Shown: positions 28,758-60,335, numbered from the stretch's first letter. The stretch is DNA of 64,000 nucleotides from an uncultured Gammaproteobacteria bacterium (GCA_964544275.1 CAZIZX010000002.1:2056-66055), one strand, 5' to 3'. Notes: generated from the letters alone by a model not told the origin. Program-made: numbers and translations.

Positions 28758-29972
28758 TTAGCGAATAGTGACAGCGTATAGGTTTTCGGGTGCACCTTCG
28801 TAGGGAGAGACTAGGGTGACAATGCGACTGCCATCCGCCCAAGGGAAGACATATTCGGGGTTAAAGTTGCCGGCGAACAATGTTTGATTGTTGGTGCTAT
28901 CGTATTCGATAACTTTGATCTGTTTATCTGACAGGTAGATAATGCTGTTGGAGTTGGGCAGCCAAAAGGGTTTTCTGATGGCGTCGGCTGCTGCCAGAAG
29001 GAAGTTGGTATCGTCTTTGAGGTCGTAAACATAATAGTTTCCAGCTTTGACATCACGGCTTTGGTTTTGGGTACTTTGAGCTGGAGGAGGGGTGATAATG
29101 TTTGGTTTGATTTGGCCGTTGGTGTGGGCAAGGTAGAGAACTTTTTCGTCGGCACTATTGAAGGAGATTTGGCTTTGGGCTGAGTCAGTGGATATGAGCT
29201 GTTTGATTTCAGGAGGGACTTTTTCCAGCTTGACCAGATTATTTTGAATAATTTGGCGTTGCCAGTCTTCACGAATGAGAGGAATTCGGGGAGTGACATC
29301 ATATAGGTTTCTGGTATTTATGGGAGAATCGAGAGAAATGAGATAGCTGATGTTGGTAGTTTTGTTTGAGGCCAATATGGATCGGCCGTCTGGGGAAAAC
29401 TCAAAGGTGAATTTGGACCAATCTATTCCAGGGTAGTTAGGTGCAATTTGTTTGGTGGGAGAGCGGTTTATCAATATGGGATTGTCGACAAGGTCAATCT
29501 GGTAGAGACCATTGTCGCGAGCAGCGGAAGCAGAAGCGACGGAGTAGATTATTTTGGTGCCGTCGGGACTGAGGGTGGAAGCGATAGCACCGGAGAGAGT
29601 GACCGGGCGAAGATCAGGAACCGATCGGTAAAGTTGAGCGTCGGTTTGAAAGACAATTTCTTTTTTGATGATAATTTCTTTTTCCCAGGGGAGATAGCCG
29701 TCTTTGACGATTTTGATAGAGTAGTCGCCGGGAGGTAGATTAATAGTGTCGTCGGTGGCTGTAATTAAGCGGTCGTTGACATAGACTGAAGCTGATTTGG
29801 GACGGGAAGTGGCAGAGAGTAGCCCGGTGGCCTGGAGGACAACTCCTTTTTGAAGATTAAGCTGATAGCCGCGAGCGTAAAAAGAGATGAGGTAGGTAGA
29901 AAAAGCTACAAGTAGGAGAACAGAAAACATTATCAAAAGACTTTTTTTGTCTGAAGATCTGGCCATGAGCAT
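28758..29972 (-). CDS. Membrane-anchored PEGA-domain + TolB-like beta-propeller protein
   Basis: The start is at MLMARSSDKK (complement of 29970-29972), or at the next ATG (29966), which sits exactly 6 nt after a TATAAT. The ORF-track start at 30182 adds 70 non-hydrophobic residues with no signals. TM LLIMFSVLLLVAFSTYLISFY. PEGA pattern VYVNDRLITATDDTINLPPGDYSIKIVKDGYLPWEKEI. Repeated ..SPDG(T/R)(K/S)I(I/L).S.. blades. Confidence 0.7.
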   Translation of the reverse strand: MLMARSSDKKSLLIMFSVLLLVAFSTYLISFYARGYQLNLQKGVVLQATGLLSATSRPKSASVYVNDRLITATDDTINLPPGDYSIKIVKDGYLPWEKEIIIKKEIVFQTDAQLYRSVPDLRPVTLSGAIASTLSPDGTKIIYSVASASAARDNGLYQIDLVDNPILINRSPTKQIAPNYPGIDWSKFTFEFSPDGRSILASNKTTNISYLISLDSPINTRNLYDVTPRIPLIREDWQRQIIQNNLVKLEKVPPEIKQLISTDSAQSQISFNSADEKVLYLAHTNGQIKPNIITPPPAQSTQNQSRDVKAGNYYVYDLKDDTNFLLAAADAIRKPFWLPNSNSIIYLSDKQIKVIEYDSTNNQTLFAGNFNPEYVFPWADGSRIVTLVSPYEGAPENLYAVTIR

Positions 29973-30033
29973 ATTATACCTTAGAGAGAAGTAGTCAGTA
30001 GCTAGTAGTTGGCAGTTGGGATAGAATAAAAAC

Positions 30034-31035
30034 ATGAAGTTGTTTAAGAAACTGGGGATTGATCTGGGAACGGCAAATAGCCTGGTGTGGGAGGCTAATG
30101 AGGGAGTAGTTTTGAATGAACCGACGGTGGTGGCGGTAGGGATTGAGGATCGGAAGGTGTTGGCGGCGGGGACTGAAGCCAAAAAGATGCTGGGGAAGAC
30201 CCCGGAATATATAGAGGTGATCAGGCCACTGTCTGACGGGGCGATTGCGGACTATGAAGTGACCGAGGCAATGTTGCGGTATTTTATGAAGCAAGTGATG
30301 GGAAATAACTGGTTTGTCGGGCCTGAAGTGATGGTTTGTGTGCCGGCGGGAGTGACCCAGGTGGAACAAAGAGCAGTTTTGGATGCGACTTTAGCGGCTG
30401 GAGCCAGGAGGGCGTATCTGATAGATGAGCCGTTGGCGGCAGCGATTGGCGCTAAAATTCCGGGGGCCGATGCCTATGGGAATATGATAGTAGATATCGG
30501 AGGCGGAGCGGCCGAAGCGGCAGTGATTGCTCTGGGTGGAGTGGTAACACATAAAAGTGTCAGGGTGGGAGGAGATAAACTAGACAGAGCAATCGTGGAA
30601 TACCTGAAAAAGAAGTATAACCTGGTGGTGGGGGAGCAAACGGCGGAGAATATTAAGATAGAACTTGGAAGTGCGATTAAATTAAAACGGCCGGAGAAAA
30701 TGGAAGTTCATGGCAGAGATTCTATTTATGGTTTACCTAAAAATATAGAGGTTACTTCGGATGAGGTGTATGAAGCGATCAGACCGATATTGGATCAAAT
30801 TATTATGTCTATTCGGGATACTCTGGAGATTACGCCACCGGAATTGGTAGCGGATATCGTGGACCGGGGGATTGTCTTAAGTGGCGGTACGGCCCAGTTG
30901 AGGAATTTTAATGTGTTGGTGACAAGGGAAATAGGGGTGTCGGCGCATGTGGCATTGGAGCCCCAATTTTGTGTGATCAGAGGAACAGGAACTGCTATAG
31001 AAAATCTGGAAGTTTATCGGCGGGCGATTAGGTGA
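30034..31035 (+). CDS. mreB: Rod-shape determining protein MreB (actin-like ATPase)
   Basis: 333 aa. ..GIDLGTANSLVW.., ..VIRPLSDGAIADYEVTEAMLRYF.., ..IVDIGGG.., ..VLSGGTAQLRNF.. Confidence 0.95.
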   Translation: MKLFKKLGIDLGTANSLVWEANEGVVLNEPTVVAVGIEDRKVLAAGTEAKKMLGKTPEYIEVIRPLSDGAIADYEVTEAMLRYFMKQVMGNNWFVGPEVMVCVPAGVTQVEQRAVLDATLAAGARRAYLIDEPLAAAIGAKIPGADAYGNMIVDIGGGAAEAAVIALGGVVTHKSVRVGGDKLDRAIVEYLKKKYNLVVGEQTAENIKIELGSAIKLKRPEKMEVHGRDSIYGLPKNIEVTSDEVYEAIRPILDQIIMSIRDTLEITPPELVADIVDRGIVLSGGTAQLRNFNVLVTREIGVSAHVALEPQFCVIRGTGTAIENLEVYRRAIR

Positions 31036-31403
31036 TACAGTTTGTTTTAGCTGTATATAAGTCTTTATTATTGATGAATTTTAGATTGTAAATATTCTTT
31101 AAAAATATCATTATAATTTTAATTATATTGAAGTGATGTTGTTTTGGTCTTTTTTGCATATTTGGCGGCTACATTGGCGTAATAAATGAGTAATAAATTT
31201 GATCATTAGAGAAAGAGTGAGAGTAAAAAGATTGGAAGGAGGTAAAACTTATAGTTGACAGGGATTTTGAGGGTGATATATTTATATTGATAACCTTATA
31301 ATTATTATGTATGGGGTAATATGAAAGTCCTATAATATAATAAATTTTTTATTATTTTGATAAAATTTTTGAAAAAACCAAAAAAGGGTTGAGTTACTAG
31401 CGT

Positions 31404-32507: not shown

Positions 32508-33449
32508 TTAGAATTGACCCAAAAACTTGATTTCGGGCTGGAGGTCGAGGTTAAGTTTCTGTTTGGCTTGAGATTGGATATACCTGATTAGGTCAAGATA
32601 GTCCCGGGCAGTGGCGGTGCCATCATTGACAAGAAAATTGGCGTGTTGGTCGGAGACCCTGGCTCCATTGATGGAGAAATTTTTTAGATTTAATTCCTGA
32701 TCGATAATCCGTCCGGCAGAGTCGGCGGGGGGGTTTTGGAAGACACAACCGGCGGAATTGGGGGGTTGGGTGATGGTTTTTTGGGCGATGATGTTCCGGA
32801 CGAGCTGTTTGGCTGGGATGGGGTTGCCTGGTGTCAGGTTTAGATTGACGGAGAGGATGATCCATTCGGGGTGGTCCTGAAATTGGGAATAATCATAAGA
32901 CCAGCGAAGTTGATTGGCTTTTTGGGTGGTAATTTTGCCGGTGAGAAGATTAATAAATTTAACTGAGTTGATAATTTGGGAAAAGTGGTGATGGTCGATT
33001 CCGTGAATGTGAGAATAAACGGCACCACCGATAGTGGCCGGGATGTAGGCATAGTATTCCAGACCGGTGAGATGGCGGTTTAGGGTGGAACTGATGGCGA
33101 AGGCCAGAGAAGTGCCAGAACTGAGGGTGACGAGTGAGGGATTTTTTTTGGAGATGGTTAAATGATTACCACTATTTTTGATGACAATGCCTCTGATACC
33201 GGAATCGGAGATGAGGACATTGGAGCCGTTGCCGAGAATGGTTAATTGTAGATGCGGCGTTGTTGCTTTGACATTATTGGAAAGAAAAATTAAAACGTCG
33301 TGAAATTCTTTTGGGTTGCGGGTGTGGATGAAGATGTCGGCCGGGCCGCCGATTTTGAGGGTGGTGTAGGGGGCAAGGGAGTGATTTTCCCGAATGGAAA
33401 GATGGGGAAATTTGGAGGAGAGACTGGAGAACAGCTGATGGTAATCCAT
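32508..33449 (-). CDS. murB: UDP-N-acetylenolpyruvoylglucosamine reductase MurB
   Basis: 313 aa. FAD-binding N-domain ..LAPYTTLKIGGPADIF.., ..LGNGSNVLISDSGIRGIVI.. TATAAT lies 6 nt upstream of the ATG on the minus strand. Confidence 0.9.
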   Translation of the reverse strand: MDYHQLFSSLSSKFPHLSIRENHSLAPYTTLKIGGPADIFIHTRNPKEFHDVLIFLSNNVKATTPHLQLTILGNGSNVLISDSGIRGIVIKNSGNHLTISKKNPSLVTLSSGTSLAFAISSTLNRHLTGLEYYAYIPATIGGAVYSHIHGIDHHHFSQIINSVKFINLLTGKITTQKANQLRWSYDYSQFQDHPEWIILSVNLNLTPGNPIPAKQLVRNIIAQKTITQPPNSAGCVFQNPPADSAGRIIDQELNLKNFSINGARVSDQHANFLVNDGTATARDYLDLIRYIQSQAKQKLNLDLQPEIKFLGQF

Positions 33450-33612
33450 GGATTGATTATAGCTTAAGGTTTGTGTTTTGGAGCAGAGATTGGCCTTATA
33501 AGTTGAGTGATTTGATGTAATATTTATATATAGGTTGTGGATGTGGAAAAGTGGATAGAATTAATGTTATCCTATAGTTTTATTGGAAGCGGAAATAGGA
33601 TAAAATTAGGTA

Positions 33613-34440
33613 ATGAAAAGTTGGTGGAAGTGGGTAGTGTTTTTGGTTTTGATTATAATTTCCGGTATATATTTGACCTCTGACAGGGAAGTGGAGAGGG
33701 CGATTGAGAGTCAGGAGGCAGTATTGGTAGAGGAAGATAAAAAAGAGTTGGGGTTGAAGTTTGCGGTAATGGCAGATGTTCATTCGGAGTGGGGAAGGTG
33801 GCGAAAATTATTGGAAAAAGCGCGGGATGGTGGTAATGAAATGGTGATAATTGCCGGGGATTTGGCGTCGGAGGCCAGAAAAAGGGATTTTTTGGAAGCC
33901 AAAAAGGTATTGGACGGAGCGGGGTTGGAGTATTATGTGGTCCCGGGAAACCATGATTGGAGGTGGGGTGAGAGTAGGGGGAGGAACGAGTACGGGGAAG
34001 TGTTTGAAGAGGATTATATGAGCTTTAAAAAGGGTGAGGTTAAATTTATTTTGGTCAATAATGGTGGTTATTTGGGTTTGGGAGAGAAACAATGGGCGTG
34101 GTTAAGGGAAGAAACAAAAGAATGTGAGGATTATTTTTGTGTGGCAGTGATGCATATGCCGTTGAACCATAATTTTTTGATGGATATTATGGGGAGAGAA
34201 AATGAAAGGTTGAGGAAAGAGGCATCAGAGTTATTAGTTTTTTTGAGGGAGAGCGGAATAAAAGATATAATTACCGGACATATGCATTATTCGACTTCTT
34301 ACGAACTGGATGGAGTGAGGACTTATATTGTCGGGGCAGTGGGAGAAGATAATAATCCGCAAGGGTCGAGGTATACGGAGTTTGAGTTCCAGGAAGGGAA
34401 GTTAGGGCGGAAAGTAGTAACTTGGGAGGAGTTAGAGTGA
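33613..34440 (+). CDS. Membrane-anchored calcineurin-like metallophosphoesterase
   Basis: 275 aa. TM, then ..FAVMADVHSEW.., ..IIAGDLASEA.., ..VVPGNHDWRWG.., ..GHMHYS.. motifs. TAAAAT lies 6 nt before the ATG. Confidence 0.8.
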   Translation: MKSWWKWVVFLVLIIISGIYLTSDREVERAIESQEAVLVEEDKKELGLKFAVMADVHSEWGRWRKLLEKARDGGNEMVIIAGDLASEARKRDFLEAKKVLDGAGLEYYVVPGNHDWRWGESRGRNEYGEVFEEDYMSFKKGEVKFILVNNGGYLGLGEKQWAWLREETKECEDYFCVAVMHMPLNHNFLMDIMGRENERLRKEASELLVFLRESGIKDIITGHMHYSTSYELDGVRTYIVGAVGEDNNPQGSRYTEFEFQEGKLGRKVVTWEELE

Positions 34441-34907: not shown

Positions 34908-34927
34908 ATATAGTAGAATTAGGATAA

Positions 34928-35248
34928 ATGGACTGCGGTTTAGGTGAAAGTGGCCGATCTATGGTGGGGGCAATTTTGATATTGCTGTTTATGGCGGGGA
35001 TGTTGCCGACTTTGATGAAGGTGGTGGGAGAAAGGCAGGACTGGCGGGATAGAGCTTCGGACAAATTACCAGGGAAAGATGCTTATGTGCTTGAGGGGAA
35101 GAGTGAGGAAGACATTGATAATATGTTTGCTTTGACTTTGACAAAAACAAGCAGATCCTGTTTGCTGATTGACTTGGGCAAGGGCTGTTTTTGTCTGGCG
35201 GGTTTGCAGTGTGTCAGTGGAGAGTGTGCCGGCTGGTACTGCGAGTGA
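34928..35248 (+). CDS. Hypothetical small membrane protein with Cys-rich C-terminus
   Basis: 106 aa. One hydrophobic helix (VGAILILLFMAGMLPTLMKVV) and C-terminal CxxGxGCFCLAGLQCVSGECAGWYCE. No family assignment. Confidence 0.3.
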   Translation: MDCGLGESGRSMVGAILILLFMAGMLPTLMKVVGERQDWRDRASDKLPGKDAYVLEGKSEEDIDNMFALTLTKTSRSCLLIDLGKGCFCLAGLQCVSGECAGWYCE

Positions 35249-35286
35249 AATTAGATGATTTGGTAAATTTACTTTATAATGCTGAT

Positions 35287-35856
35287 ATGATTTCCAGCCT
35301 AAAAGGGGTATTAAACAAAATCAGAAACAGGGATGTTGAGGTGGAAGTAAACGGAGTGGGTTATCTAGTACGGGTGGGCAGCGGTTTTTTGAGAAGACAT
35401 GTTGAGGGAGAAGAAGTGCGGATAGAGACTTACATGGCGGTGTCGGAGAATGATATGAGTTTGTACGGATTTGATTCTGGTGAGGAAGTGGAGTTGTTTA
35501 AGATGTTTTTGGGAGTTTCCGGTATTGGTCCAAAGACGGCTTCTTTGATTTTGGGAGAGTGTGAAGTAGAGGCGGTAATGAAGGCGATAGGGGAAGCGGA
35601 TGTGAAATATTTTGAGAAAATTAAGGGAGTGGGTAAAAAGGCAGCCCAAAGAATTATTATTGATTTGAAATCGAAAATTGGCGGGTTAGGGGAACTGGAC
35701 TTAAGGCAGGATGAAGATGGTGGGGATGAATTGTATTTGAGTTTGAGGCAATTGGGTTTCGCCCGGGTGGAAATTGAAGCGGTGGTTAAAAAGATGCCGA
35801 TGGAAGTTTTGACTATCGAAGAAAGGCTGAGTTGGTGTTTGAATAATTTGGGGTAA
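35287..35856 (+). CDS. ruvA: Holliday junction DNA helicase RuvA
   Basis: MISSLKGVL..VEVNGVGYLVRV.. is the OB-fold domain I. HhH motifs GVSGIGPKTASLIL and IKGVGKKAAQRIIIDLKSK. TATAAT lies 6 nt before the ATG. The ORF-track start at 35191 is in-frame upstream junk. Confidence 0.9.
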   Translation: MISSLKGVLNKIRNRDVEVEVNGVGYLVRVGSGFLRRHVEGEEVRIETYMAVSENDMSLYGFDSGEEVELFKMFLGVSGIGPKTASLILGECEVEAVMKAIGEADVKYFEKIKGVGKKAAQRIIIDLKSKIGGLGELDLRQDEDGGDELYLSLRQLGFARVEIEAVVKKMPMEVLTIEERLSWCLNNLG

Positions 35857-35957
35857 AATAGCGCATGGCCGAGAAAAAGATTTTTAGGGTTTGGTCCCAG
35901 AAGAATGTGTGGCGGCTGATTTGGGTTTTGTTTGGTGGTTTATTGTAAAATAATGAA

Positions 35958-36920
35958 ATGAGCGATAGCAACCTGGACCCGAAGCCCAAGAAAGAAGATA
36001 AAATTATTGAGAAAAGTTTGAGACCACAGAGTTTGGCAGAGTTTATTGGACAGGAGAGACTGAAGGAGCAGTTGAGAATATTTGTGGAGGCGGCAAGAGC
36101 GAGGAGCGAACCCCTGGATCATATCTTGTTTTATGGTCCACCGGGATTGGGAAAAACAACGTTGGCATTTTTGATGGCCAAGGAGATGGGGTCAAATATT
36201 AAAATTACTTCAGGTCCGGCCATGACACGAGCTGGGGATTTGGCGGCGATACTGTCGGGGCTAAAAAGAGGAGATTTTTTGTTTATTGATGAAATTCATC
36301 GGATGAATAAGTTGGTGGAAGAAACTTTGTATGGTGCGATGGAAGATTTTGCCTTGGATATTGTATTGGGTAAGGGTCCGTCGGCAAAGACGGTCAGGTT
36401 AAACCTACAAAAGTTTACGATTGTGGGGGCGACAACGAGGATTGGGTTGATATCTGGGCCAATGAGAGACCGGTTTGGTTATGTTCAACAGCTGGATTTT
36501 TATGATGAAGAAAGTTTGAGGGAAATTGTGGAGAGAACGGGCGAAGTGTTAAAAGTAAAAATTGAAGAGAAGGCGGCAATGGAAATTGCTAAAAGATCGC
36601 GAGGAACACCGAGAGTGGCCAATAGATTATTGCGAAGGGTGAGGGATTATGCTCAAGTGAACAATGACGGGTTGATTACCATTAACGAAGCTAAGATGGC
36701 TTTGAAGATGATGGGTGTGGACGAAATGGGTCTTTCGGACGCAGACAGGAAATATCTGGAGGTGGTTAGAACACATTATGGTGGCGGACCGGTGGGGGTG
36801 GAAAATTTAGCGGCAGCGTTAACTGAGGATATTGGTACTATCACGGAAGTTTATGAGCCTTTTTTGATGAAGAGAGGTTTAATTAAAAGGACACCAAGAG
36901 GCAGGGTGCTGGTTGGGTAG
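35958..36920 (+). CDS. ruvB: Holliday junction DNA helicase RuvB
   Basis: 320 aa. Walker A GPPGLGKTTLA, Walker B DFLFIDEIHR, sensor ..TTRIG.., C-terminal winged helix. TAAAAT lies 6 nt before the ATG. Confidence 0.95.
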   Translation: MSDSNLDPKPKKEDKIIEKSLRPQSLAEFIGQERLKEQLRIFVEAARARSEPLDHILFYGPPGLGKTTLAFLMAKEMGSNIKITSGPAMTRAGDLAAILSGLKRGDFLFIDEIHRMNKLVEETLYGAMEDFALDIVLGKGPSAKTVRLNLQKFTIVGATTRIGLISGPMRDRFGYVQQLDFYDEESLREIVERTGEVLKVKIEEKAAMEIAKRSRGTPRVANRLLRRVRDYAQVNNDGLITINEAKMALKMMGVDEMGLSDADRKYLEVVRTHYGGGPVGVENLAAALTEDIGTITEVYEPFLMKRGLIKRTPRGRVLVG

Positions 36921-36949
36921 TATTTAGATATTATCTAAAATATAAATTT

Positions 36950-37207: not shown

Positions 37208-37363
37208 AGACTGGCTCCTGTTGTATCAGAATAATGTATAACTGTAATCAGTAAAACACATTGGATATTTGTGTGTCAATGAGGCAAATAAGAGTGGTTT
37301 GACGCTAGATGTAGTGTAGGTGGTAGCTGTGGGAAAAAGATAAATATAGTGTAAAATTCTGGT

Positions 37364-38377
37364 ATGGATAAACAAGGGAATGTCAAGATCGCTTTTTTTG
37401 GAGTTAAATCGTGGGAAAGAGAGACGATCGAGAAGGAATTAGTCAAGATTGATAGTTATGGAGTGGGAATTTTTGAGGAGGAGGTACAGGATAAGGTGGA
37501 GCTGGCGGGTGAGTATGAAGTAATTTCTATTTTTATATATTCGAAGATGGATAAGAAGGTATTGGATAAGCTGCCAAGGTTAAAAATGATTGCTACCAGA
37601 TCAACCGGAACAGACCATATTGATTTGGACGAAGCGAAAAAGAGGGGAATAAAGGTAGTTAACGTGCCGGTGTATGGGTCGGAGACAGTGGCAGAGTATT
37701 CAATGGCTTTACTTTTGGCGGTGGCCAAAAAAATTGTTTGTGGTCATCAGGCGGTTGAAGATAATTATTTTAATCCGGAGGGTTTAACGGGGGTGGATTT
37801 AGCCGGAAAAACATTGGGTGTAATTGGGGTCGGAAGGATAGGGCAGAATATGATACGTTACGCCAGAGGCTTTAGGATGAAAGTTTTGGGGGTAGACGGT
37901 AATAGATTGCCCGGATTGGAAAAAAAATTGGGATTTCGGTATACGGATCTGGAAAATTGTCTGAAGGAATCTGATTTTGTGAGTTTGCATGTTCCAAGTA
38001 TTCCGGAAACGTTTCATATTATAAATAGAAATAATGTTAAATTAATGAAGAGAGGGTGTGTGTTGATTAATACATCGCGGGGGACGGTGGTGGAATCAGA
38101 GGCAATTGTGTGGGCGTTGAACAAAGGAATTTTGGCCGGAGCGGGACTGGATGTGGTGGAAGAAGAGGGTTTGCTGATTGATGATGGCAGTATGGCTTTG
38201 GATAAATCGGTGACTAAAGATGATTTGAGAGAAATGGTGAGCTACCATTTGCTGAGGGACAGGGACGATGTGATACTAACACCCCATAATGCTTTTAATA
38301 CCAAAGAGGCAATTGAGAGAATAATATCAACAACGGTGAATAGTATCGGCGAGTATTGTCAGGTAGTAGTGAGATAG
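37364..38377 (+). CDS. D-isomer-specific 2-hydroxyacid dehydrogenase (D-lactate/phosphoglycerate dehydrogenase family)
   Basis: 337 aa. NAD-binding GxGxxG (..LGVIGVGRIGQNM..), catalytic R/E/H arrangement (..TSRGTVVE.., ..LTPHNAF..). TAAAAT lies 6 nt before the ATG. Confidence 0.85.
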   Translation: MDKQGNVKIAFFGVKSWERETIEKELVKIDSYGVGIFEEEVQDKVELAGEYEVISIFIYSKMDKKVLDKLPRLKMIATRSTGTDHIDLDEAKKRGIKVVNVPVYGSETVAEYSMALLLAVAKKIVCGHQAVEDNYFNPEGLTGVDLAGKTLGVIGVGRIGQNMIRYARGFRMKVLGVDGNRLPGLEKKLGFRYTDLENCLKESDFVSLHVPSIPETFHIINRNNVKLMKRGCVLINTSRGTVVESEAIVWALNKGILAGAGLDVVEEEGLLIDDGSMALDKSVTKDDLREMVSYHLLRDRDDVILTPHNAFNTKEAIERIISTTVNSIGEYCQVVVR

Positions 38378-38466
38378 GTGGTAGGTGTGTAATTGATATG
38401 TATCCTATAATATATTGACAACGGTTAGGTTGGTGTGTAAAATATGTTCAAGAAGCAGGAATTTAT

Positions 38467-43850: not shown

Positions 43851-43884
43851 ATAAAGGGTGGGAGGAGATGGAGTAGAATAAGGT

Positions 43885-44964: not shown

Positions 44965-44973
44965 AATGGGGTA

Positions 44974-46473
44974 ATGAAAACCGGATTTGATACGCAAGCT
45001 TATCTGAAGGCTCAGAAGATTGCGGTGGAAGAAAGACTAGAAAAGTTTTCGGGAAGGTTATATCTGGAATTTGGAGGAAAACTGATGGATGATTTCCATG
45101 CGTCCAGGACTTTGCCTGGATATGATCCGAATGCCAAGTTGACATTGTTGAAGAGCTTAAAGCGAAATTTGGGGGTAATTTATTGTATATCGGCTAAACA
45201 ACTGGCTGATGGGAAATTAAGAGGTGATTGGGGACAGGGTTATGATGAGGCAACTATAAGGGCGATAAAGGGGTTGATGGAAGAGGGGATTGAGGTGGAA
45301 GGTGTGGCGATTAATCGGTATGAGGGAGAGAGGGAGGCAGATATTTTCCAAAGGAGACTGAGGCAGATGGGGATGAAGGTATTTAAGCGAAAGGAAATTA
45401 GAGGGTATCCTAAGAGAATTAAATATATTTTGAACGACAAGGGTTTTGGATCGGATGAATATTTGACACCAAAAAATAAATTGGTGGTGGTATGGGGAGC
45501 AGGTCCGGGGTCGGGAAAGTTATCAACTTGTCTGGGGCAGATATATCACGAAGAAAGAATGGGCTTGAATTCCGGGTATGCCAAATTTGAAACGTTTCCG
45601 GTTTGGGATTTACCTTTGGAGCACCCGGTAAACATAGCCTATGAAGCAGCCACGGCGGATTTAGGGGATTATAACGTGATTGATAAATTTCACCGACAGG
45701 CCGGTAAGGGAGAGGCAGTTAATTACAACCGGGATATCGAATCATTTCCAATTATTAAAGGAATATTTGAAAAGTTAATGAGCAAGGGTAATTTTGCCAG
45801 AAATTATGAGTCGCCGACAGATATGGGATTTAATCGATTGTCGGCAGGGATTGTAGATGATGAGGTGATAAGGGAAGCGGCCAGAAAGGAAATAAATTAT
45901 TATGTTTTTCGGTACAGGGAGGAATATAAAAAGGGGTTGGTGGAAAAGGATACACTGGATAGGATGGAAAATATATTAAAAAGGGTGGGGGTAAAAGAGG
46001 ATTATTTGAAAACTGTAAGTATGGCTAGGTTGGCCAGAGCTGAGGTGGCCAGGAGAAAAGATAAAGGAAGCATGGGAATAAATTGTGGAGCAGCAATTGA
46101 GCTGGAAACGGGAGAGGTAGTTACGGGAAAGAACTCGCCTTTGTTGCATGCTGAGGCGGCGGCAGTGCTGAACGCGGTTAAGGTGATAGCCGGGATAGAG
46201 GATCAATTTGAACTGATATCACCGTCGGTAATTAAGGAGGTGAATTTGTTGAATAAAAGATTGGGAGACAAATCATGTTCGCTGGATTGTGCCGAGATGA
46301 TGTTGGCTTGGGCAATATCAGCCCGAGATAACCCACTGGCGCGGAAGGGTTTGAGATATTTGGGGAAATTAAAAAGTTGCTTTATGCATACGACCCATCA
46401 GCCGTCAGCGGCAGATTGTAACTTGTTCCGAAAATTGGGGATGTGGGTATCGACGGATGGGTTGATTGCCTGA
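44974..46473 (+). CDS. UPF0371/DUF1846-family protein
   Basis: 499 aa. Blocks RLYLEFGGKLMDDFHASRTLPGYDPNAK, AKFETFPVWDLPLEHPVNIAYEAATADLGDYNVID and TGKNSPLLHAEAAAVLNAVK match the conserved UPF0371 blocks as I remember them. TAAAAT lies 6 nt before the ATG. Confidence 0.75.
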   Translation: MKTGFDTQAYLKAQKIAVEERLEKFSGRLYLEFGGKLMDDFHASRTLPGYDPNAKLTLLKSLKRNLGVIYCISAKQLADGKLRGDWGQGYDEATIRAIKGLMEEGIEVEGVAINRYEGEREADIFQRRLRQMGMKVFKRKEIRGYPKRIKYILNDKGFGSDEYLTPKNKLVVVWGAGPGSGKLSTCLGQIYHEERMGLNSGYAKFETFPVWDLPLEHPVNIAYEAATADLGDYNVIDKFHRQAGKGEAVNYNRDIESFPIIKGIFEKLMSKGNFARNYESPTDMGFNRLSAGIVDDEVIREAARKEINYYVFRYREEYKKGLVEKDTLDRMENILKRVGVKEDYLKTVSMARLARAEVARRKDKGSMGINCGAAIELETGEVVTGKNSPLLHAEAAAVLNAVKVIAGIEDQFELISPSVIKEVNLLNKRLGDKSCSLDCAEMMLAWAISARDNPLARKGLRYLGKLKSCFMHTTHQPSAADCNLFRKLGMWVSTDGLIA

Positions 46474-46950: not shown

Positions 46951-46974
46951 AATTTTTTTAGTTTTAATAAATAA

Positions 46975-47493: not shown

Positions 47494-47504
47494 ATTTTTT
47501 GAAT

Positions 47505-47600
47505 TAAAAAACCTCGCCTGAAGGAGCGAGGTGTAAATAACAATTTAGCTGTATTTGCCTCGGTAGGTAGCTTCGACCCAGTGGGTACCTACGGTCTTCG
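47505..47600 (-). promoter_or_regulatory. Structured rplJ leader region (two stem-loops), possible L10-L12 autoregulatory/attenuator element
   Basis: On the minus strand: hairpin CCTCGC-n8-GCGAGG (47512-47531) followed by UUUUU, immediately 5' of the rplJ start. A second stem GTAGGTA...TACCTAC at about 47565-47595. Confidence 0.3.
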
Positions 47601-47649
47601 GTTAAAGGATAGGGAGATTATACAGACAAACGGGAAAAGTATCAAGACC

Positions 47650-49137: not shown

Positions 49138-49165
49138 TTAGGATGAGAGGTTTTTGGGGTAAAAT

Positions 49166-50194
49166 ATGGGAGTGACGAAGAAAGCCGTGTTGGGATTGGG
49201 GATTTTGTTGGCTGTAGTTTTTTTGGGTTTTGTTTATTGGAAGTGGGGGATGAGATTGGTGGAACCGAGAGGGGTGGAGACTAAAATTTTGGAGGCTGAT
49301 TGGGAAAAGTATGATTTTGACAGTTTGAGAAAAAGAGGTGGAGTGGCAAGTTTGATTGAACTTTCGGGTGAGCCTGAAGGAGTGGTGGTCAGAAGGAAAG
49401 AAACGGCGGCGGAATTGGGCATTGATAGTAAAGTTTTTTATTTTTATTCCGAGGGCAAGAAGATTTCGGGGATGGTGAATATACCGGAACTTGATGAAAG
49501 CCGGAAAAGAGGGGCAATAATTATGATCCGGGGTTATGCGGACAAACAAGGTTACTATGTTGGATCGGGGAGTTGGCGGGTGGCAGATGAGTTGGCAAAA
49601 ATGGGATTTATGACGTTTTCGATAGATTTTTTGGGCTTTGGGGAATCGGAAGGGGAAAGTCTGGACATGATGGAGGCGAGGTTTGAAAAAGTGCCGGCAG
49701 TTCTGGACTTAATCGAATCGGTAAAAGCGGTGGGGATGGTGGATGAAAGTAAGATTGGAATATGGGCTCACAGTAATGGGGGCCAGATAGCTTTGTCGGT
49801 TTTGGAAATTACGGGGGGTGATTATCCGACCAGTTTGTGGGCGCCGATGACTAATCCATTCCCTAAGAGTGTATTAGAGACAGCTTCAGGTTTGAGTGAC
49901 GGCGGAAAAGCGGTAGTTAGTGCTATAAAAGAATTTGAGAGGAGCCACGACAGTCGAAGATATGCGTTTGAGAATTATTATGATTGGATAAAGGCGCCAG
50001 TGGTGATCCATCAGGGAACCGGAGATGAGTGGTGTGAGGTGGTTTGGCAGGAAGAGGTGGTTTTGGGTTTGAAAAGAGCGGGCAAAGAGGCTGTTTTGTA
50101 CGAGTATCCCGGGGATGATCACAATTTATCCGGAAGTTGGGAAGAGGTGGTGGAGAGGGATGGATTATTTTTTAAAAATTATCTGATAGATTGA
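49166..50194 (+). CDS. Membrane-anchored alpha/beta hydrolase (dienelactone hydrolase / S9-like)
   Basis: 342 aa. N-terminal TM. Nucleophile elbow ..IGIWAHSNGGQIAL.. Downstream D and H (..GTGDEWC.., ..PGDDHNL..). TAAAAT directly precedes the ATG. The GTG at 49172 would give the 6-nt spacing seen elsewhere. Confidence 0.75.
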   Translation: MGVTKKAVLGLGILLAVVFLGFVYWKWGMRLVEPRGVETKILEADWEKYDFDSLRKRGGVASLIELSGEPEGVVVRRKETAAELGIDSKVFYFYSEGKKISGMVNIPELDESRKRGAIIMIRGYADKQGYYVGSGSWRVADELAKMGFMTFSIDFLGFGESEGESLDMMEARFEKVPAVLDLIESVKAVGMVDESKIGIWAHSNGGQIALSVLEITGGDYPTSLWAPMTNPFPKSVLETASGLSDGGKAVVSAIKEFERSHDSRRYAFENYYDWIKAPVVIHQGTGDEWCEVVWQEEVVLGLKRAGKEAVLYEYPGDDHNLSGSWEEVVERDGLFFKNYLID

Positions 50195-50329
50195 ACGGCT
50201 GGTTTGAGGACACATGCGTATTGGATGTTGCTGGAACAAAGGAGCGAGTAAAGTTTTATTTAGGCTAAAATGCCTGAATAATGATATACTTCCAGTTGTT
50301 TTAATTAAGAATTTATTTAAAATAAGTTT

Positions 50330-51151
50330 ATGGAAAAAGAAGATCTTTGTCGGGCGCTAAGGGGCAGGGAAAAACATGGCTTTCGAATTGACAATTCGGA
50401 ATATTGGAGAAATTATTATGAGAAGAAGTTTAAAAATCTTGATTTGGTGAGAGAAAAAAAATACGCGAAGTTTCTGAAGGAGACATATCCGGGTTACAAA
50501 AAGTATCTGGACGTGGCTTCGGGCTATGGATTTTTACCTTTGGAATTGACTAGACTGGGAATAAAGGTGGTTTGCGTGGATAAGTTTAAAACCATGAGGG
50601 AGGCAGCAAAAAATTATTTTAAGAGTAACGGTTATGAGATTGAAATAGTGGGATCAGATATCACAAAAATGCCTTTTGAAAAGAATGAATACGAGGTGGT
50701 AACGGCAATTTCTATATTGGAGCATTTTCCGATGGTAGAGATAAAAAAAGATGTTTTTGGAGAGATAAACAGAGTTTTGAAAAAAGGTGGAATATTGGTG
50801 GCGCATGTGCCGATAAAGAGTGTGGTAACGAGAATCAAAAGATGGTACAGAACTAAAATAAAGAAGGATTTGCCTGAGTGGGCGGTGGACGATGACGGGG
50901 ATGTAACTCACAAAATTTGGTTCACGGCAGATTCCTGTCTGGCTTTACTGAAAGAGATGGGCTACAGGGTGGACTATGTAATGTTTAACTTTAAGAGAAG
51001 TAACGAAGAGTTGGCTTCAATTAAATTTCTTGACGGATTATTATCGCCGGGGTTGGGGAAATTTTATAGAATGAATGACGTGTTGACCTGGAGGCAGAAA
51101 CTTATCTCTGTTTTTGCCTCTTCTGTGGTATTTGTTTGCAGAAAAAAATAA
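50330..51151 (+). CDS. Class I SAM-dependent methyltransferase
   Basis: 273 aa. Motif I ..YLDVASGYGFLPLELTRLGIKVVCVD... Motif II/post-I ..GSDITKMPFEKNEYEVV... TAAAAT lies 6 nt before the ATG. Confidence 0.8.
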   Translation: MEKEDLCRALRGREKHGFRIDNSEYWRNYYEKKFKNLDLVREKKYAKFLKETYPGYKKYLDVASGYGFLPLELTRLGIKVVCVDKFKTMREAAKNYFKSNGYEIEIVGSDITKMPFEKNEYEVVTAISILEHFPMVEIKKDVFGEINRVLKKGGILVAHVPIKSVVTRIKRWYRTKIKKDLPEWAVDDDGDVTHKIWFTADSCLALLKEMGYRVDYVMFNFKRSNEELASIKFLDGLLSPGLGKFYRMNDVLTWRQKLISVFASSVVFVCRKK

Positions 51152-51174
51152 GTAAATGTAGTATAATTTAGGCC

Positions 51175-51750
51175 ATGAAAGTATTTTTTGTAGCTTCCCC
51201 CAGATCGGTCAACAGGGAGCCGGAAAATTTCAGGAACCTTTTTGGGCATATTGAAAAGGATAATAAGATGCTATCTGATTGGGTTCTGGATTGGGGTAAG
51301 GGCAATGTAGAAAGTTTCTATAGCGGGACACATAAAGAAAGAATCGAACATTTCAAAGAGACAATGGACTATATCAAAAGAGCGGAATTAGTAATAGTGG
51401 AGGTGTCGGAACATAGTATGTCGATGGGATATATAGTCAATAAAGCTTTGGAAATTGGTAAGCCGGTAATTGCTCTTTTTAAGGAAGGATTTGAACCATA
51501 TTTTTTTAGCGGAATTGAAGATACAAAGCTGCAGATAGTCGGTTATGATGAAAATAACTACAGACAGGTGTTGGATGAATCTGTTGAGAGAGCCAGAAGT
51601 AATATTGATGTCAGGTTTAACTTTTTTGTGTCACCTAAAATTTTGAATTATCTCGATTGGGTAGCGAAGAAGAGAATGATTCCCAGGTCGGTATTTTTGA
51701 GAAATCTGATTGAGAGGGAAATGAAGAAAGATAAAGAGTTTGCGAATTAG
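51175..51750 (+). CDS. Fusion protein: nucleoside 2-deoxyribosyltransferase-like domain + C-terminal ribbon-helix-helix (CopG-like) domain
   Basis: 191 aa. The N-terminal part (MKVFFVASPRS ... VIVEVSEHSMSMGYIVNKALEIGKPVIALF) fits the Nuc_deoxyrib_tr-like pattern (..E..G.A.A.GKPVi..). The C-terminal part (VRFNFFVSPKILNYLDWVAKKRMIPRSVFLRNLIEREM) fits RHH/CopG. TATAAT lies 7 nt before the ATG. Confidence 0.55.
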   Translation: MKVFFVASPRSVNREPENFRNLFGHIEKDNKMLSDWVLDWGKGNVESFYSGTHKERIEHFKETMDYIKRAELVIVEVSEHSMSMGYIVNKALEIGKPVIALFKEGFEPYFFSGIEDTKLQIVGYDENNYRQVLDESVERARSNIDVRFNFFVSPKILNYLDWVAKKRMIPRSVFLRNLIEREMKKDKEFAN

Positions 51751-52973: not shown

Positions 52974-53003
52974 TTTATTGTTATTTTAACTTATAATTCG
53001 GGA

Positions 53004-53927
53004 ATGAGGAGAAGAGTGTTGGTGCTGATGGGAGGAAATGGTCCGGAGAGAGAGGTTTCTTTGAATAGTGGAAAGGAAGTGGTCAAAAATTTTGACAGAG
53101 AGAAGTTTGAGGTGTTTCAGTTCGATTTGAATAATAATCTCCCTGATTTAATAAAGTTTATTCAAGATAATAAGATTGAGGTGGTGTTTGTGGCTTTGCA
53201 TGGGAAAGGGGGTGAAGATGGACAAATTCAAGGGGTTTTAGATTTGTGTAATGTTGTTTATACCGGGTCGGGTGTGCTGGCTTGTGCGATTGGAATGGAT
53301 AAAGCGATGTTTAAGAGAGTGATCGAGTTTGAGGGAATAAGAGTGCCGAAGTGGTTTGAGGTTGTTGAGAATATGAGTGAATTTGACTTAAATAAAGTTA
53401 AAAAATTGGGAACTAAATGGGTAGTTAAGCCGTGTGATCTGGGTTCGAGTATTGGAGTAAGAATAGTGGCGAAAGAAGGGGATTTAATAAAGACGATCAG
53501 TTCGGTGCTGGAGTTGAGCAGGAAGGCAATTGTGGAGGAATATGTTGAGGGAGTGGAAGTGTCTTGTGGTGTAATTGGCAATAAAAATCTGAGAGCTTTG
53601 CCATTAATTGAGATTGTGCCGGAAAATGATTTCTTTGATTATCAGGCAAAATATGAGGGAAAATCCAAAGAAATAGTACCGGCGAGGGTTGAAAGAGAAG
53701 TGGCCGAGGAAGTTTGGGAAATATCAAAGAAAATTCACAAGCTTGTCGGAGCTCGGGGTTTTTCCCGGGTAGATTTTATTATCAGAGATAATATTCCTTA
53801 TGTTTTGGAAATTAATATAATACCCGGTCTAACTTCAGAATCATTATTACCAAAAGAATCCAGGGCTGCCGGGATGACTTATGCTGAGTTGCTGGAAGAA
53901 ATTGTGGTGGTGGCAATTAACAAGTAA
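53004..53927 (+). CDS. ddl: D-alanine--D-alanine ligase
   Basis: MRRRVLVLMGGNGPEREVSLNSGKEV.., ..VALHGKGGEDGQIQGVLDL.., ATP-grasp C-terminal half. TATAAT (52992-52997) lies 6 nt before the ATG at 53004. The ORF-track start at 52965 adds 13 upstream residues. Confidence 0.9.
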   Translation: MRRRVLVLMGGNGPEREVSLNSGKEVVKNFDREKFEVFQFDLNNNLPDLIKFIQDNKIEVVFVALHGKGGEDGQIQGVLDLCNVVYTGSGVLACAIGMDKAMFKRVIEFEGIRVPKWFEVVENMSEFDLNKVKKLGTKWVVKPCDLGSSIGVRIVAKEGDLIKTISSVLELSRKAIVEEYVEGVEVSCGVIGNKNLRALPLIEIVPENDFFDYQAKYEGKSKEIVPARVEREVAEEVWEISKKIHKLVGARGFSRVDFIIRDNIPYVLEINIIPGLTSESLLPKESRAAGMTYAELLEEIVVVAINK

Positions 53928-54021
53928 TTCTTACTTAATTCTTGCTGGTTTCTTTTTGCTTTCCTAAGTAAATTTTTGAAGATATGGTTAAGTAATTAAA
54001 ATTTAAAGCAGGAGGAAAATT

Positions 54022-54582
54022 ATGGCTGGAATGATGGTAGGAATGTTTGATTCTTTTGATGATGCCGACAGGGCGTTGAGGGATCTGAGGGATGCCGGTT
54101 TTGAGGTGGAGGATATGGAGGTGGGTGGAGGACGAAGGCAGAGAGAAGTCAGAGAAGCCGGTAGAAGGGGAGGGATGACAACGGTGAGGCGAGATAGGAC
54201 CGGTAATATTGGAAATGGCGTGATTACTGGGGCGATAGTAGGAGGACTGGCGGGTTTGATTTATGGGATGGTGGCTTCATTGGTGCCGGGCTTGGGAAGT
54301 ATATTGTTTGTCGGTCCGATAGCTGGAGCGTTGGGCTTGACCGGAATCGGGGCGGTAACAGTGACTGGAATGGTGTTGGGGGCTGCGATTGGGGGCCTGG
54401 TTGGAACTTTGGAGAGAACCGGGGAGGTTTCGGAAGAAGTCGGAACATATTATAACGAAGAAGTAAGGGGCGAAGATGTACTGTTGATGGTGCCTGTGGC
54501 TGACGGCAGAAGTAGTGAAGTGGAAAGAATAATGAACAGGAATGGGGTGGGGCAAGTAAGAATGGTCGATGTTAATATTTAA
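54022..54582 (+). CDS. Glycine-zipper membrane protein (general-stress / YflT-DUF1269-like)
   Basis: 186 aa. N-terminal DADRALRDLRDAGFEVEDM, then a Gly-rich TM region (GAIVGGLAGLIYGMV..GPIAGALGLTGIGAV..GAAIGGLVG), then C-terminal ..EDVLLMVPVADGRSSEVERIMNRNG. AGGAGG SD. Confidence 0.55.
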   Translation: MAGMMVGMFDSFDDADRALRDLRDAGFEVEDMEVGGGRRQREVREAGRRGGMTTVRRDRTGNIGNGVITGAIVGGLAGLIYGMVASLVPGLGSILFVGPIAGALGLTGIGAVTVTGMVLGAAIGGLVGTLERTGEVSEEVGTYYNEEVRGEDVLLMVPVADGRSSEVERIMNRNGVGQVRMVDVNI

Positions 54583-54592
54583 AGCAGCGAAC

Positions 54593-55336: not shown

Positions 55337-55356
55337 ATTTTTTTAAATTGTTAAAT

Positions 55357-55782
55357 TTATTCAGTGATTTCGATGCCCATGGAACGGGCAGTGCCCATAA
55401 CGGTGTTTTTGGCCGCTTCTAGATCCTTGGTATTCATATCAATGATCTTGTCGCTGGCAATTTGCTCTACCTGGGCCATGGTTAGTTTGCCAACCTTTTC
55501 CCGACCTGCGGTTTGAGCGCCTTTGGAGAGACCGGCCATTTTTTTGATAGTGTCGGAAACGGGTGGTTTTTTGATGATGAAATCGAAAGAGCGGTCTTCG
55601 TAGATAGTAATGAGGGAGGGTATCAATGAACCTCGCATGTTTTTGGTTTTTTCATTGAACTCGTTGCAGAAGTCCATGATTTTGATACCGTGGGGCCCGA
55701 GAGCGGTGCCAACCGGAGGAGCCGGATTAGCACTACCAGCAGGAAGGGCAATTTTGACTATGGTTTTGATTTTTTTGGCCAT
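55357..55782 (-). CDS. rplK: 50S ribosomal protein L11
   Basis: MAKKIKTIVKIALPAGSANPAPPVGTALGPHGIKIMDFCNEFN.. (141 aa). The ORF-track entry 55357..56094 extends upstream in-frame, but that part overlaps nusG in another frame. The L11 start is 1 nt after the nusG stop. Confidence 0.9.
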   Translation of the reverse strand: MAKKIKTIVKIALPAGSANPAPPVGTALGPHGIKIMDFCNEFNEKTKNMRGSLIPSLITIYEDRSFDFIIKKPPVSDTIKKMAGLSKGAQTAGREKVGKLTMAQVEQIASDKIIDMNTKDLEAAKNTVMGTARSMGIEITE

Positions 55783-55783
55783 T

Positions 55784-56380
55784 TTATAATTCTTTGGTAA
55801 CTTGTAAAAAGTCGAGTTCAACTGGAGTTTCCCGCTCGAAGAAGGAAACCAGACAGCGAATTTTGCCTTTTTCCTGATCAATTGAGTCGATAGTACCAAT
55901 AAAGTCAGCAAAAGGACCATTGGTAATTTTGACGACATCGCCAATAGCGAAGGGGGTTTGATATTTGGGTTTTTCCTCTTCGACGGTCTTGATAATGGTG
56001 TCAACTTCTTTTTGGGAAATGGGGGAGGGTTGGTTGCCAATGCCGACAAAGCCGGTAACTCCCTGGGTGGTTCTGACGGTGATCCAAGAGTCATCGGTTA
56101 AGGCCATTTGAATCAAAACGTAACCGGGGAAAGTTTTTTCCTGGGTTTTGACCTTTTGGCCACGACGGATAACCATTTTGCTTTGGATAGGAACGATGGC
56201 CTGAAAAATTTTGTCTTCCAGGTTCATGGTTTTGATGCGGGTTTTGAGGGCGTCAATAACTTTGTATTCGTGACCGGAATAAGTGTTGATCACATACCAG
56301 GCGGCATCAAACTTCGGCTCTTTACTAGAGAGCTTGAATAAAAATTCCTTTTTTTTGGTTTTATTTGACGTATTGGGCAT
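55784..56380 (-). CDS. nusG: Transcription termination/antitermination factor NusG
   Basis: Start at MPNTSNK (complement of 56378-56380), 1 nt after the secE stop. NGN domain ..WYVINTYSGHEYKV.. KOW ..FAIGDVVKITNGPFADFIGTI.. Confidence 0.9.
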   Translation of the reverse strand: MPNTSNKTKKKEFLFKLSSKEPKFDAAWYVINTYSGHEYKVIDALKTRIKTMNLEDKIFQAIVPIQSKMVIRRGQKVKTQEKTFPGYVLIQMALTDDSWITVRTTQGVTGFVGIGNQPSPISQKEVDTIIKTVEEEKPKYQTPFAIGDVVKITNGPFADFIGTIDSIDQEKGKIRCLVSFFERETPVELDFLQVTKEL

Positions 56381-56381
56381 A

Positions 56382-56672
56382 TTAGTTGTTGATATCTGAT
56401 GATTGAGTTGATTCCGGAGAGCTGTTTTCCGGAGAATCCGGTTCAGATATAGTTTCGGGTTCGAGTTCTGTTGTCGGGGTGGTTTGATTGATGCCACCCA
56501 AAAGAGCAATTGAATTAGTAAATAAGTAATCGAAACCTCCTAAAATTAGGGAAGTTATGATCGAGATTGATATTACCACAACTGAAAGCTGAATTAAAGT
56601 ATCTTTTTTGGGCCAGGAGATGTTTTTGAATTCGGCCTTGACTTCGTTGTAAAAACGGATGAGTTTTTGCAT
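56382..56672 (-). CDS. secE: Preprotein translocase subunit SecE
   Basis: 96 aa. ..EVKAEFKNISWPKKDTLIQLSVVVISISIITSLILGGFDY.. is the SecE pattern (K-x-V-x-W-P + one TM). TATAAT lies 6 nt before the ATG. Confidence 0.75.
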   Translation of the reverse strand: MQKLIRFYNEVKAEFKNISWPKKDTLIQLSVVVISISIITSLILGGFDYLFTNSIALLGGINQTTPTTELEPETISEPDSPENSSPESTQSSDINN

Positions 56673-56800
56673 GAAGATATTATACCTTAGGATTTGATTA
56701 TTATCTAAAAAACTGGAGATTGAACTAAATTATTGTTCAACTAAGAAACTGATTTTTGGTGGATTTGATATATTTTTGCCCATTACTTTCTAGTTGACTG

Positions 56801-60328: not shown

Positions 60329-60335
60329 TTAAAAA

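Follow-up and report, generated by a model that had tools for sequence, protein, structure and literature searches.

An extended -10 element was found at the start codons of roughly a third of the genes in a 64,000-nucleotide (nt) stretch of contig CAZIZX010000002.1 (2056-66055, assembly GCA_964544275.1), referred to below, at its full length, as the window. The element is an 11-mer, T(-17) R n G n TAnAAT, whose last T lies most often 6 nt from an ATG. Such sites are very probably sigma-A promoters with a TRTGn-like extended -10 that is independent of a -35 hexamer, and their placement on the start codon would yield leaderless mRNAs; the promoter was recognised from its sequence and surroundings, and from these we infer the exact transcription start (+1) and leaderless translation. 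The motif was localised, specific to one clade and kept among orthologues, it also preceded non-coding genes, and Shine-Dalgarno (SD) sequences were scarce.

The window has a G+C (GC) content of 44% and uses the standard code (code 11): TAA, TGA and TAG all terminate long open reading frames (ORFs), with TGA as the stop of 11 of 42. Proteins sharing 78-82% identity with the RuvB of the window come from metagenome-assembled genomes, several of which are labelled Candidatus Shapirobacteria, which places the probable host, an uncultured ultra-small bacterium, in a Candidatus Shapirobacteria-like clade of the Candidate Phyla Radiation (CPR, Patescibacteria). GC content across the clade is 31-46%. 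The window gene set comprised 52 genes, one for every non-nested ORF of 100 amino acids (aa) or more and each started at its first ATG, a rule that avoids fitting starts to the motif. Relatives were represented by 12 clade loci from GTDB (141 kb, 140 genes) and by 23 more clade loci found independently in metagenomes via MreB (244 kb, 189 genes). Spacers were counted as the nucleotides between the last T of the -10 hexamer and the start codon, the 11-mer occupying positions -17 to -7.

An extended -10 element next to start codons

The original prediction had described -10-like hexamers a few nucleotides before the start codons of a series of genes, together with a 14-mer, ATATTATACCTTAG, at 29971-29984 and 56677-56690. 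All of these hexamers, start codons and 14-mers were found in place by a check of the sequence. The 14-mer is the reverse complement of CTAAGGTATAATAT, and its sharing by secE and a TolB-like gene amounts to two good copies of the promoter consensus. Positional enrichment of the hexamers near starts, which had been named as the check to make, was detected in the window and in both sets of relatives with a mode of 6. The observation is real and stronger than had been stated.

The spacer between TAnnnT and ATG had its mode at 6 (10 of the window genes), and 19 sites lay at spacers 5-8, where ∼3.4 were expected from all other ATGs of the window. The narrower TAnA[AC]T was present at spacers 5-8 in 16/52 genes and at nearly no other position between -46 and -1; the carrier fraction was 14-16/52. 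When 64 patterns of the form XYnnnZ were compared at spacers 5-7, TAnnnT gave the largest excess (15 against 3.9 in the window, 65 against 14.9 in relatives), and an unbiased ranking of 6-mers in -20 to -1 was headed by TAAAAT, TATAAT and TAGAAT, with no SD word among the top. The loose pattern TANNNT-N6-ATG was not enriched across the whole window (30 against 36 expected). It is the stricter motif, and its placement at gene starts, that carries the signal. In-frame spacers of 3, 9 and 12 were flat and TATAAT, which has no in-frame stop at spacer 6, was as enriched as TAAAAT, which excludes an in-frame-stop artefact. A raw position-frequency logo of unaligned upstream regions was too blurred by mixed gene classes and spacer lengths to be informative.

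The hexamer of the original prediction was confirmed, and the full element proved longer, its upstream half (T-17, G-14) having been missed. Strict matches to TNNNNTANAAT-N6-ATG numbered 13, against 1.01 ± 0.92 in 100 dinucleotide shuffles (maximum 3), and all 13 open long ORFs (at 11827, 20281, 29966, 33449 and 56672 on the minus strand and at 30034, 33613, 35287, 35958, 37364, 44974, 50330 and 53004 on the plus strand). Base frequencies were taken from 87 gene-linked sites of the window and relatives, aligned on the hexamer; positions left unconstrained gave A-9 0.84, A-8 0.86, G-14 0.55, T-17 0.69, R-16 0.72 and T-15 0.40. T-17 was present in all 20 TAnAAT sites lying 0-10 nt before the ATG of a long ORF, compared with 61/170 of all TAnAAT sites in the window. 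Among TAnA[AC]T sites it marked 15/16 of those linked to genes and 27% of the others in the window (Fisher p = 1e-7), and 68% and 32%, respectively, in relatives (Fisher p = 2e-7). G-14 likewise separated gene-linked from other sites in relatives (64% against 17%, Fisher p = 4e-13); within the window itself it was weak (6/16), unlike T-17. The free positions thus obey sigma-70/sigma-A rules, which upholds the proposal that the hexamer is a -10 promoter element, and the extended motif also precedes tRNA-Pro and the L10 leader at promoter distance. T-17 R-16 T-15 G-14 corresponds to the TRTGn '-16 element' of Gram-positive promoters, known also from Mycoplasma hyopneumoniae promoters without a -35 (PMC3325076).

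Upstream of 373 clade genes, the density of the 11-mer on the sense strand was 6.5 per nt per 100 genes at spacers 5-8. From 9 to 200 nt it dropped to the level of the antisense control (0.13-0.31), and no second population of leadered promoters of the 11-mer type was found over that distance.

TAnA[AC]T was carried at spacers 5-8 by 53/140 genes of the GTDB clade loci and by 84/189 genes of the metagenome clade loci. In the latter set 23 genes had the motif at spacer 5 and 53 at spacer 6 (76/189), with 0-5 at any other position. The architecture thus occurs in roughly a third to nearly half of the genes (30-45%; 27-44%). Per locus the motif was present in 24-71% of genes, in clade members only. 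Other GTDB loci (other CPR including Magasanikbacteria and Uhrbacteria, Clostridia and others) had it in ∼10% of genes or fewer, except for L016 (2/11), L065 (1/6), L080 (1/7) and L037 (1/7), and distant metagenome loci in 26/539 genes (∼5%). Orthologues within the clade keep the architecture while the sequence of the 6-nt spacer varies and protein identity is only 44-80%.

Across bacteria, the distance from a -10 element to the transcription start downstream of it centres on 7 bp (PMC12641261). At a spacer of 6, the most frequent one, the seventh base past the hexamer is the A of the ATG, which coincides with this centre, in keeping with the geometry originally proposed. The housekeeping RNA polymerase of the clade would use a -35-independent extended -10, T(-17) R(-16) n G(-14) n T A n A A T, whose last T is placed 6 nt (range 5-8) from the ATG in ∼30-45% of genes. 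Transcription beginning ∼7 nt past the -10 would then start at the A of the ATG or right beside it, and the resulting mRNA would have no 5' leader and no SD. Its translation would follow the leaderless route, with the AUG at the 5' terminus recognised by ribosome and initiator tRNA. Such promoters would also serve genes in same-strand gaps of 9-40 nt, where they overlap the 3' ends of upstream genes, because none of these genes can do without a start site of its own. The element is mostly missing from genes that abut or overlap the gene before them; these presumably depend on translational coupling, and a minority of genes, such as ruvC and the 54022 gene, would be SD-led.

Individual sites, start codons and Shine-Dalgarno sequences

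Twelve of the strict matches are described here by function and the thirteenth by its ORF; in each the spacer is 6 nt. The site of ruvA (TACTTTATAAT, ATG 35287; 35270-35289, plus strand) keeps its architecture in 17/21 orthologues. That of ruvB (TATTGTAAAAT, ATG 35958; 35941-35960, plus strand) is specific to the window. The 2-hydroxyacid dehydrogenase gene, assigned by Pfam, has TAGTGTAAAAT before ATG 37364 (37347-37366, plus strand), and relatives carry TTTGaTAAAAT/TAGAAT at the equivalent place. Also with Pfam assignments are a methyltransferase (TTATTTAAAAT, ATG 50330; 50313-50332, plus strand), a Big_1-domain protein absent from the original prediction (TCCGTTACAAT, ATG 11827; 11825-11844, minus strand) and the DUF1846 gene (TGATGTAAAAT, ATG 44974; 44957-44976, plus strand), whose hexamer shares bases with the TAA that ends the preceding gene (9-nt gap). 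The ddl gene, with Pfam Dala_Dala_lig domains, has TAACTTATAAT before ATG 53004 (52987-53006, plus strand), and its ORF is open for 24 codons upstream of that ATG. The promoter of secE (Pfam SecE), TAAGGTATAAT before ATG 56672 (56670-56689, minus strand), recurs as TAAGGTATAAT at the TolB/PEGA-like gene, where it is followed by ATGCTC and ATG 29966, the second ATG, at spacer 6 (29964-29983, minus strand); TATAAT-N5-7-ATG is present in 25/26 orthologues of this gene and the 26th has a spacer of 8. The mreB site, also new (TGGGATAGAAT, ATG 30034; 30017-30036, plus strand), is kept in 20/27 orthologues. For murB (TAAGCTATAAT, ATG 33449; 33447-33466, minus strand) TATAAT-N5-7-ATG was found in 14/15 orthologues despite protein identities of only 44-48%. 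Divergent from murB is a metallophosphoesterase gene identified by Pfam (TAGGATAAAAT, ATG 33613; 33596-33615, plus strand). The remaining strict match, likewise new, is that of ORF 19634-20281 (215 aa, no Pfam hit), with TATACTAAAAT before ATG 20281 (20279-20298, minus strand).

Two of these gene pairs are arranged back to back, TolB-like/mreB with a 67-nt gap (29964-30036) and murB/metallophosphoesterase 163 nt apart (33447-33615). Each gene of both pairs has its own extended -10 next to its start codon.

Other sites deviate in spacing or sequence. On the plus strand, ORF 43885-44964 has TGGAGTAGAAT at 5 nt from its ATG (43869-43887), ORF 51175-51750 has TGTAGTATAAT at 7 nt (51157-51177), and ORF 34928-35248 has TATAGTAGAAT at 8 nt (34909-34930). 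An M16 peptidase gene (Pfam) has TAAGGTAAAAT at 8 nt from ATG 26122 (26103-26124, plus strand) and would be near-leaderless. On the minus strand, the gene of a LamG-type giant protein has T-17 and TAAACT at 7 nt from ATG 8601 (8599-8619), and the dedA/VTT-domain gene (Pfam) has a weaker site without T-17, TATACT at 6 nt from ATG 61965 (61963-61977). At the alpha/beta hydrolase gene (49155-49174, plus strand) TGGGGTAAAAT directly abuts ATG 49166 (spacer 0), and GTG 49172 lies at spacer 6.

The motif had been proposed as a rule for choosing start codons. The rule held for ATG 35287 of ruvA and for the second ATG of the TolB-like gene (spacers 5-7 in the 25/26 orthologues); for GTG 49172 of the hydrolase it was unconfirmed, the one orthologue being uninformative. 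Positions 1-61 of Pfam RuvA_N align to residues 1-61 counted from ATG 35287, positions 2-324 of MreB_Mbl to residues 5-327 of the mreB product, positions 2-332 of DUF1846 to residues 4-338 and positions 2-54 of SecE to residues 6-58. These alignments confirm the motif-proximal ATGs as the predicted N-termini. The public ruvA call (215 aa, Logan contig SRR8925753_68553; locus L001, 938-1585; window 35191-35289) begins 78 nt upstream of ATG 35287 and is 26 codons too long. It is an example of systematic over-extension of starts where a TATAAT -10 leaves the frame open; murB, secE and the TolB-like gene, like ddl, are also open upstream of the motif-proximal ATG. At spacers 5-7 ATG far outnumbers GTG and TTG and is almost the sole start codon in the motif arrangement, as expected because a 5'-terminal AUG would be the feature recognised.

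That SD sequences are a minority signal, as originally stated, was borne out. An SD core at -18 to -5 was present in 9/52 window genes (4/52 in a control window), in 14/140 genes of the GTDB relatives (control 8) and in 23/189 of the metagenome relatives, barely above the control level. Motif and SD core occurred together in 2/18 motif genes of the window and 3/69 of relatives, the 5-8 nt spacer leaving no room for an SD. Two SD-led genes give the contrast: ruvC, with GGGAGGAG at 6 nt from GTG 34437 and no -10 (34421-34439, plus strand; Pfam RuvC 1-148 aligned to residues 2-147), and the 54022 gene, with AGGAGG at 6 nt from its ATG (54010-54024, plus strand). A separate observation concerns other Parcubacteria-type CPR loci (L017, L024, L053, L061, L066, L078 and others), which had neither the -10 motif nor SD cores (SD core in 0 of 12-18 genes). 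The anti-SD is reported to be lacking in part of the Parcubacteria (PMC9297842). These loci agree with that loss and may use yet another mode of initiation.

Promoter identity, ribosome signals and leader length

The 11-mer was also found before genes that are not translated. On the minus strand of the window tRNA-Pro(cgg) is preceded by TAAGTTATAAT (28096-28106), 15 nt upstream of its mature 5' end at 28080. In the window and in 12-13/18 clade loci, the mature 5' end follows this 11-mer or a similar one (TAAGTTATAAT, TGAGATATAAT, TAAGATATAAT and the like) at a distance of 10-18 nt. A leader RNA matching Rfam L10_leader (47496-47619) is headed by a canonical leadered promoter, TTGATA-17-TATAAT (47617-47645, minus strand), which matched 11/12 in a promoter scan. 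Its -10 lies ∼115 nt before the L10 ATG and is kept in 4 loci as TATAAT/TACAAT, accompanied by TTGATA or TTTACA at 17 nt, or by TATGa; these forms indicate that the clade polymerase reads canonical -10, -35 and TRTG signals. A ribosome site of the GeneMarkS-2 group B kind (the Bacteroidetes type) is expected only before translated ORFs, on mRNAs with a leader, and the element extends beyond these to tRNA-Pro and the L10 leader. It is best read as a promoter and not a ribosome site, because the 11-mer stands before tRNA-Pro, the -10 heads the L10 leader and the spacer of 6 matches the transcription-start distance.

As regards the tRNA locus itself, the pair tRNA-Pro(cgg)-tRNA-Arg(cct) (27871-28106, minus strand; L002, L009, L014 and L083-L103) is syntenic throughout the clade. 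It usually stands behind a TRnGnTATAAT promoter, with the predicted start only ∼3-11 nt before the mature tRNA-Pro 5' end.

Several findings weigh against leaderless transcription from these sites. The ruvB promoter is not conserved, ruvA and ruvB of relatives overlapping (ATGA) without a promoter, and the M16 peptidase motif (26122) is specific to the window and not kept in orthologues. About half of the genes, under the crude start rule, have neither motif nor SD. Neither 16S rRNA nor its anti-SD was recovered: across the window and 19 clade loci, Rfam matched only tRNAs, L10 leaders and one riboswitch. TTGACA-like -35 sequences were not enriched 16-18 nt upstream of gene-linked -10s (best match 2.56 against 2.52 background; 2.70 against 2.57), and a two-hexamer promoter scan exceeded shuffles only mildly (48 against 34); the element would appear to work without a -35 hexamer. 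From sequence, a start a few bases upstream, giving a very short leader, is indistinguishable from a leaderless one. Where the same-strand gap is 11-40 nt, genes carry the motif about as often (7/11 in the window, 8/17 in relatives) as divergent genes do, and GeneMarkS-2 interprets a single motif shared by first and internal genes as marking ribosome binding and not promoters (PMC6028130). Where the gap did not exceed 10 nt, the motif was present in 1/9 cases in the window and 7/19 in relatives.

These last points bear on a reading in which TAnAAT is a non-SD, AT-rich translation signal in the style of group B, read by the ribosome instead of RNA polymerase on leadered, largely polycistronic mRNAs. 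Its presence in same-strand gaps of only 9-40 nt, its overlap with an upstream stop codon at DUF1846 and the unenriched -35 would all suit such a signal. So would the intrinsic terminators, which were not enriched (14 found, 12 expected), and the scarcity of SD, since another ribosome signal might then be expected. We nevertheless consider this reading improbable. The motif is the sigma-70 -10 consensus with a TRTGn-type upstream extension, the identical 11-mer precedes the untranslated tRNA-Pro, and the element heads the L10 leader far from the L10 ATG. Its spacing is sharply 6 (5-6 in relatives), which is the -10-to-start distance, the start codon is nearly always ATG, and few genes that overlap the preceding one have the motif (1/9 in the window).

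Real promoters could alternatively have transcription starts that vary in position or lie 2-5 nt ahead of the ATG and so produce very short leaders, with translation perhaps relying on A-rich or unstructured 5' ends. Spacers of 7-10 at 51175, LamG, 26122, 34928 and 23655 point that way, as does the presence of both 5 and 6 among relatives, and the -10-to-start distance is reported to be more variable in N. lyticus, the only CPR species of the dataset, and in M. pneumoniae (PMC12641261). On the other side, the mode was 6 in three independent data sets, and at normal -10-to-start distances a spacer of 5-6 nt cannot accommodate a start ahead of the ATG. Moreover, mRNAs whose leader is no longer than 3 nt generally act like leaderless ones. 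We regard such short leaders as unlikely.

An artefact of AT-rich intergenic DNA, of stop codons within TAA- or TAG-type hexamers or of starts chosen to fit the motif is scarcely credible. In its favour are the unenriched loose pattern TANNNT-N6-ATG, the in-frame stops that TAAAAT and TAGAAT form at spacer 6 and the AT-richness of relatives (32-39% GC). Starts were, however, taken by an objective rule (first ATG per ORF), TAnnnT ranked first among the 64 patterns of like structure, spacers 3, 9 and 12 were unenriched with TATAAT as enriched as TAAAAT, and T-17 and G-14 were associated with gene-linked sites. The 13 strict matches stood against 1.0 in dinucleotide shuffles, AT-rich Clostridia and other CPR loci treated identically showed nothing, and orthologues conserve the architecture. 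The controls on start rule, in-frame spacers, shuffles, other lineages and orthologues together refute this explanation. Extended -10 promoters that yield leaderless mRNAs are retained as the preferred account.

Strand composition, neighbouring features and known leaderless systems

The plus strand of the window contains 19445 G and 8674 C, with a GC skew of 0.20-0.52 across all 4-kb bins. Third codon positions have G 0.37 and C 0.10 in plus-strand genes and G 0.09 and C 0.39 in minus-strand genes; because the preference reverses between strands, the compositional bias tracks the DNA strand and not transcription. A skew of 0.17-0.57 was present in all clade loci (L002-L014, L082-L104), the same clade that has the predicted leaderless architecture, and no literature combining GC skew and Shapirobacteria was found. 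GC skew as the factor dictating SD use is not supported: SD cores in the window lie only on the plus strand (9/32 against 0/20), but relatives gave 9/97 and 5/43.

Three further features of the window were recorded. Positions 1-2600 are gene-poor, with no ORF longer than 114 aa, only short minus-strand ORFs rich in Pro, Ser, Thr and Leu and no Rfam match, and could be a decayed gene or non-coding DNA. The minus-strand ORFs 18883-19842 (319 aa) and 19634-20281 (215 aa) are in different frames and overlap by ∼200 nt; the downstream gene, ORF 18883-19842, probably truly begins at a later ATG, e.g. 19728. An AdoCbl-II (cobalamin) riboswitch (60321-60397, plus strand) overlaps the final codons of ORF 59852-60328 and lies upstream of ORF 60411-61313, a leadered, riboswitch-controlled gene amid a region rich in predicted leaderless ones.

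A wider reading may be offered tentatively, as a possibility that we ourselves doubt. Leaderless expression would be the default of the whole CPR clade, with a -35-less start-codon promoter for nearly every independently expressed gene even in tight same-strand arrays and with SD almost vestigial. It would have co-evolved with a reduced ribosome and with the extreme G/C strand asymmetry, because a signal of A and T alone is equally affordable on G-rich and C-rich mRNAs, and the clade would be the first low-GC, code-11 lineage with Deinococcus-level usage.

CPR organisms are uncultured, and the consensus TRnGnTAnAAT, with the predicted leaderless regime, offers a first handle on how they initiate transcription and translation. 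Both give testable starting points for metatranscriptomic work and for expressing CPR genes in foreign hosts. In annotation the 11-mer can set start codons of the clade, where standard callers over-extend ORFs if TATAAT leaves the frame open. Since the type of mechanism is well established, the gain is one of breadth and not of principle, and its value is moderate.

The architecture is already known, as TA-led genes, as group C, in Deinococcus-Thermus and in Mycoplasma; what is new is the lineage. No report of it in CPR (Patescibacteria, Saccharibacteria, Microgenomates) was found in a literature search of incomplete coverage, which is not proof of novelty. Three marks of the leaderless class are present: a sharply localised TANNNT (spacer peak 6 in the window, 5-6 in the two relative sets), a substantial fraction of genes (14-16/52, 53/140 and 84/189, known cases having ∼20-50%) and no SD between motif and start. 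Distinctive of the clade are its membership of the CPR, a low to middle GC content with code 11, a TRTG-like extension with dominant T-17 and the near absence of SD.

The closest likeness is to the '-10 region adjacent to ORFs' of Deinococcus-Thermus, where a TANNNT-type -10 lies ∼6-7 bp before about one third (up to 46%) of genes (PMC12340547; Zheng et al., 2011, PMC3160421). The 46% of TA-led genes in D. radiodurans was the highest bacterial proportion found (Zheng et al., 2011, PMC3160421). The clade has the same spacing, 27-44% of genes with the motif, a separate SD class and the same exposure of mis-annotated starts; the Deinococcus-Thermus motif is likewise conserved, across its genus. 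Deinococcus differs in its high GC and its degenerate TAnnnT, most often TACACT, for which no T-17/G-14 extension is reported, whereas the clade has informative middle positions (TAnAAT), an extension to -17 and a place in the CPR. Leaderless genes of Deinococcus have experimental support; those of the clade are predicted from sequence.

In GeneMarkS-2 group C (Actinobacteria, e.g. M. tuberculosis; PMC6028130) the remaining genes are SD-led, and code-11 genomes of this group are almost all high-GC (MetaGeneMark-2 preprint). The clade, by contrast, has 31-46% GC, SD barely above background in its remaining genes and a motif that is common at short same-strand gaps, and it would widen the distribution of code-11 leaderless-rich bacteria beyond the high-GC genomes reported. 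Lactococcus and Streptococcus have TA-led genes of low GC, with TAtAAT ∼10 bp before the start and, further upstream, a TG peak taken to stand in for the -35 (Zheng et al., 2011). Their reported proportions are lower and the SD of Firmicutes is strong, whereas that of the clade is marginal. In M. hyopneumoniae a TRTGn '-16' is present in about half of promoters with no recognisable -35 (PMC3325076), and in Mycoplasma, the code-4 part of group C, 30-60% of transcripts are predicted to be leaderless (PMC3325076; MetaGeneMark-2 preprint). The clade resembles Mycoplasma in its small reduced genome, low to middle GC and -10 with a TRTGn-type extension and no -35; it differs in phylum, in its use of code 11 and in the window sites, where T-17/R-16 is better kept than T-15/G-14.

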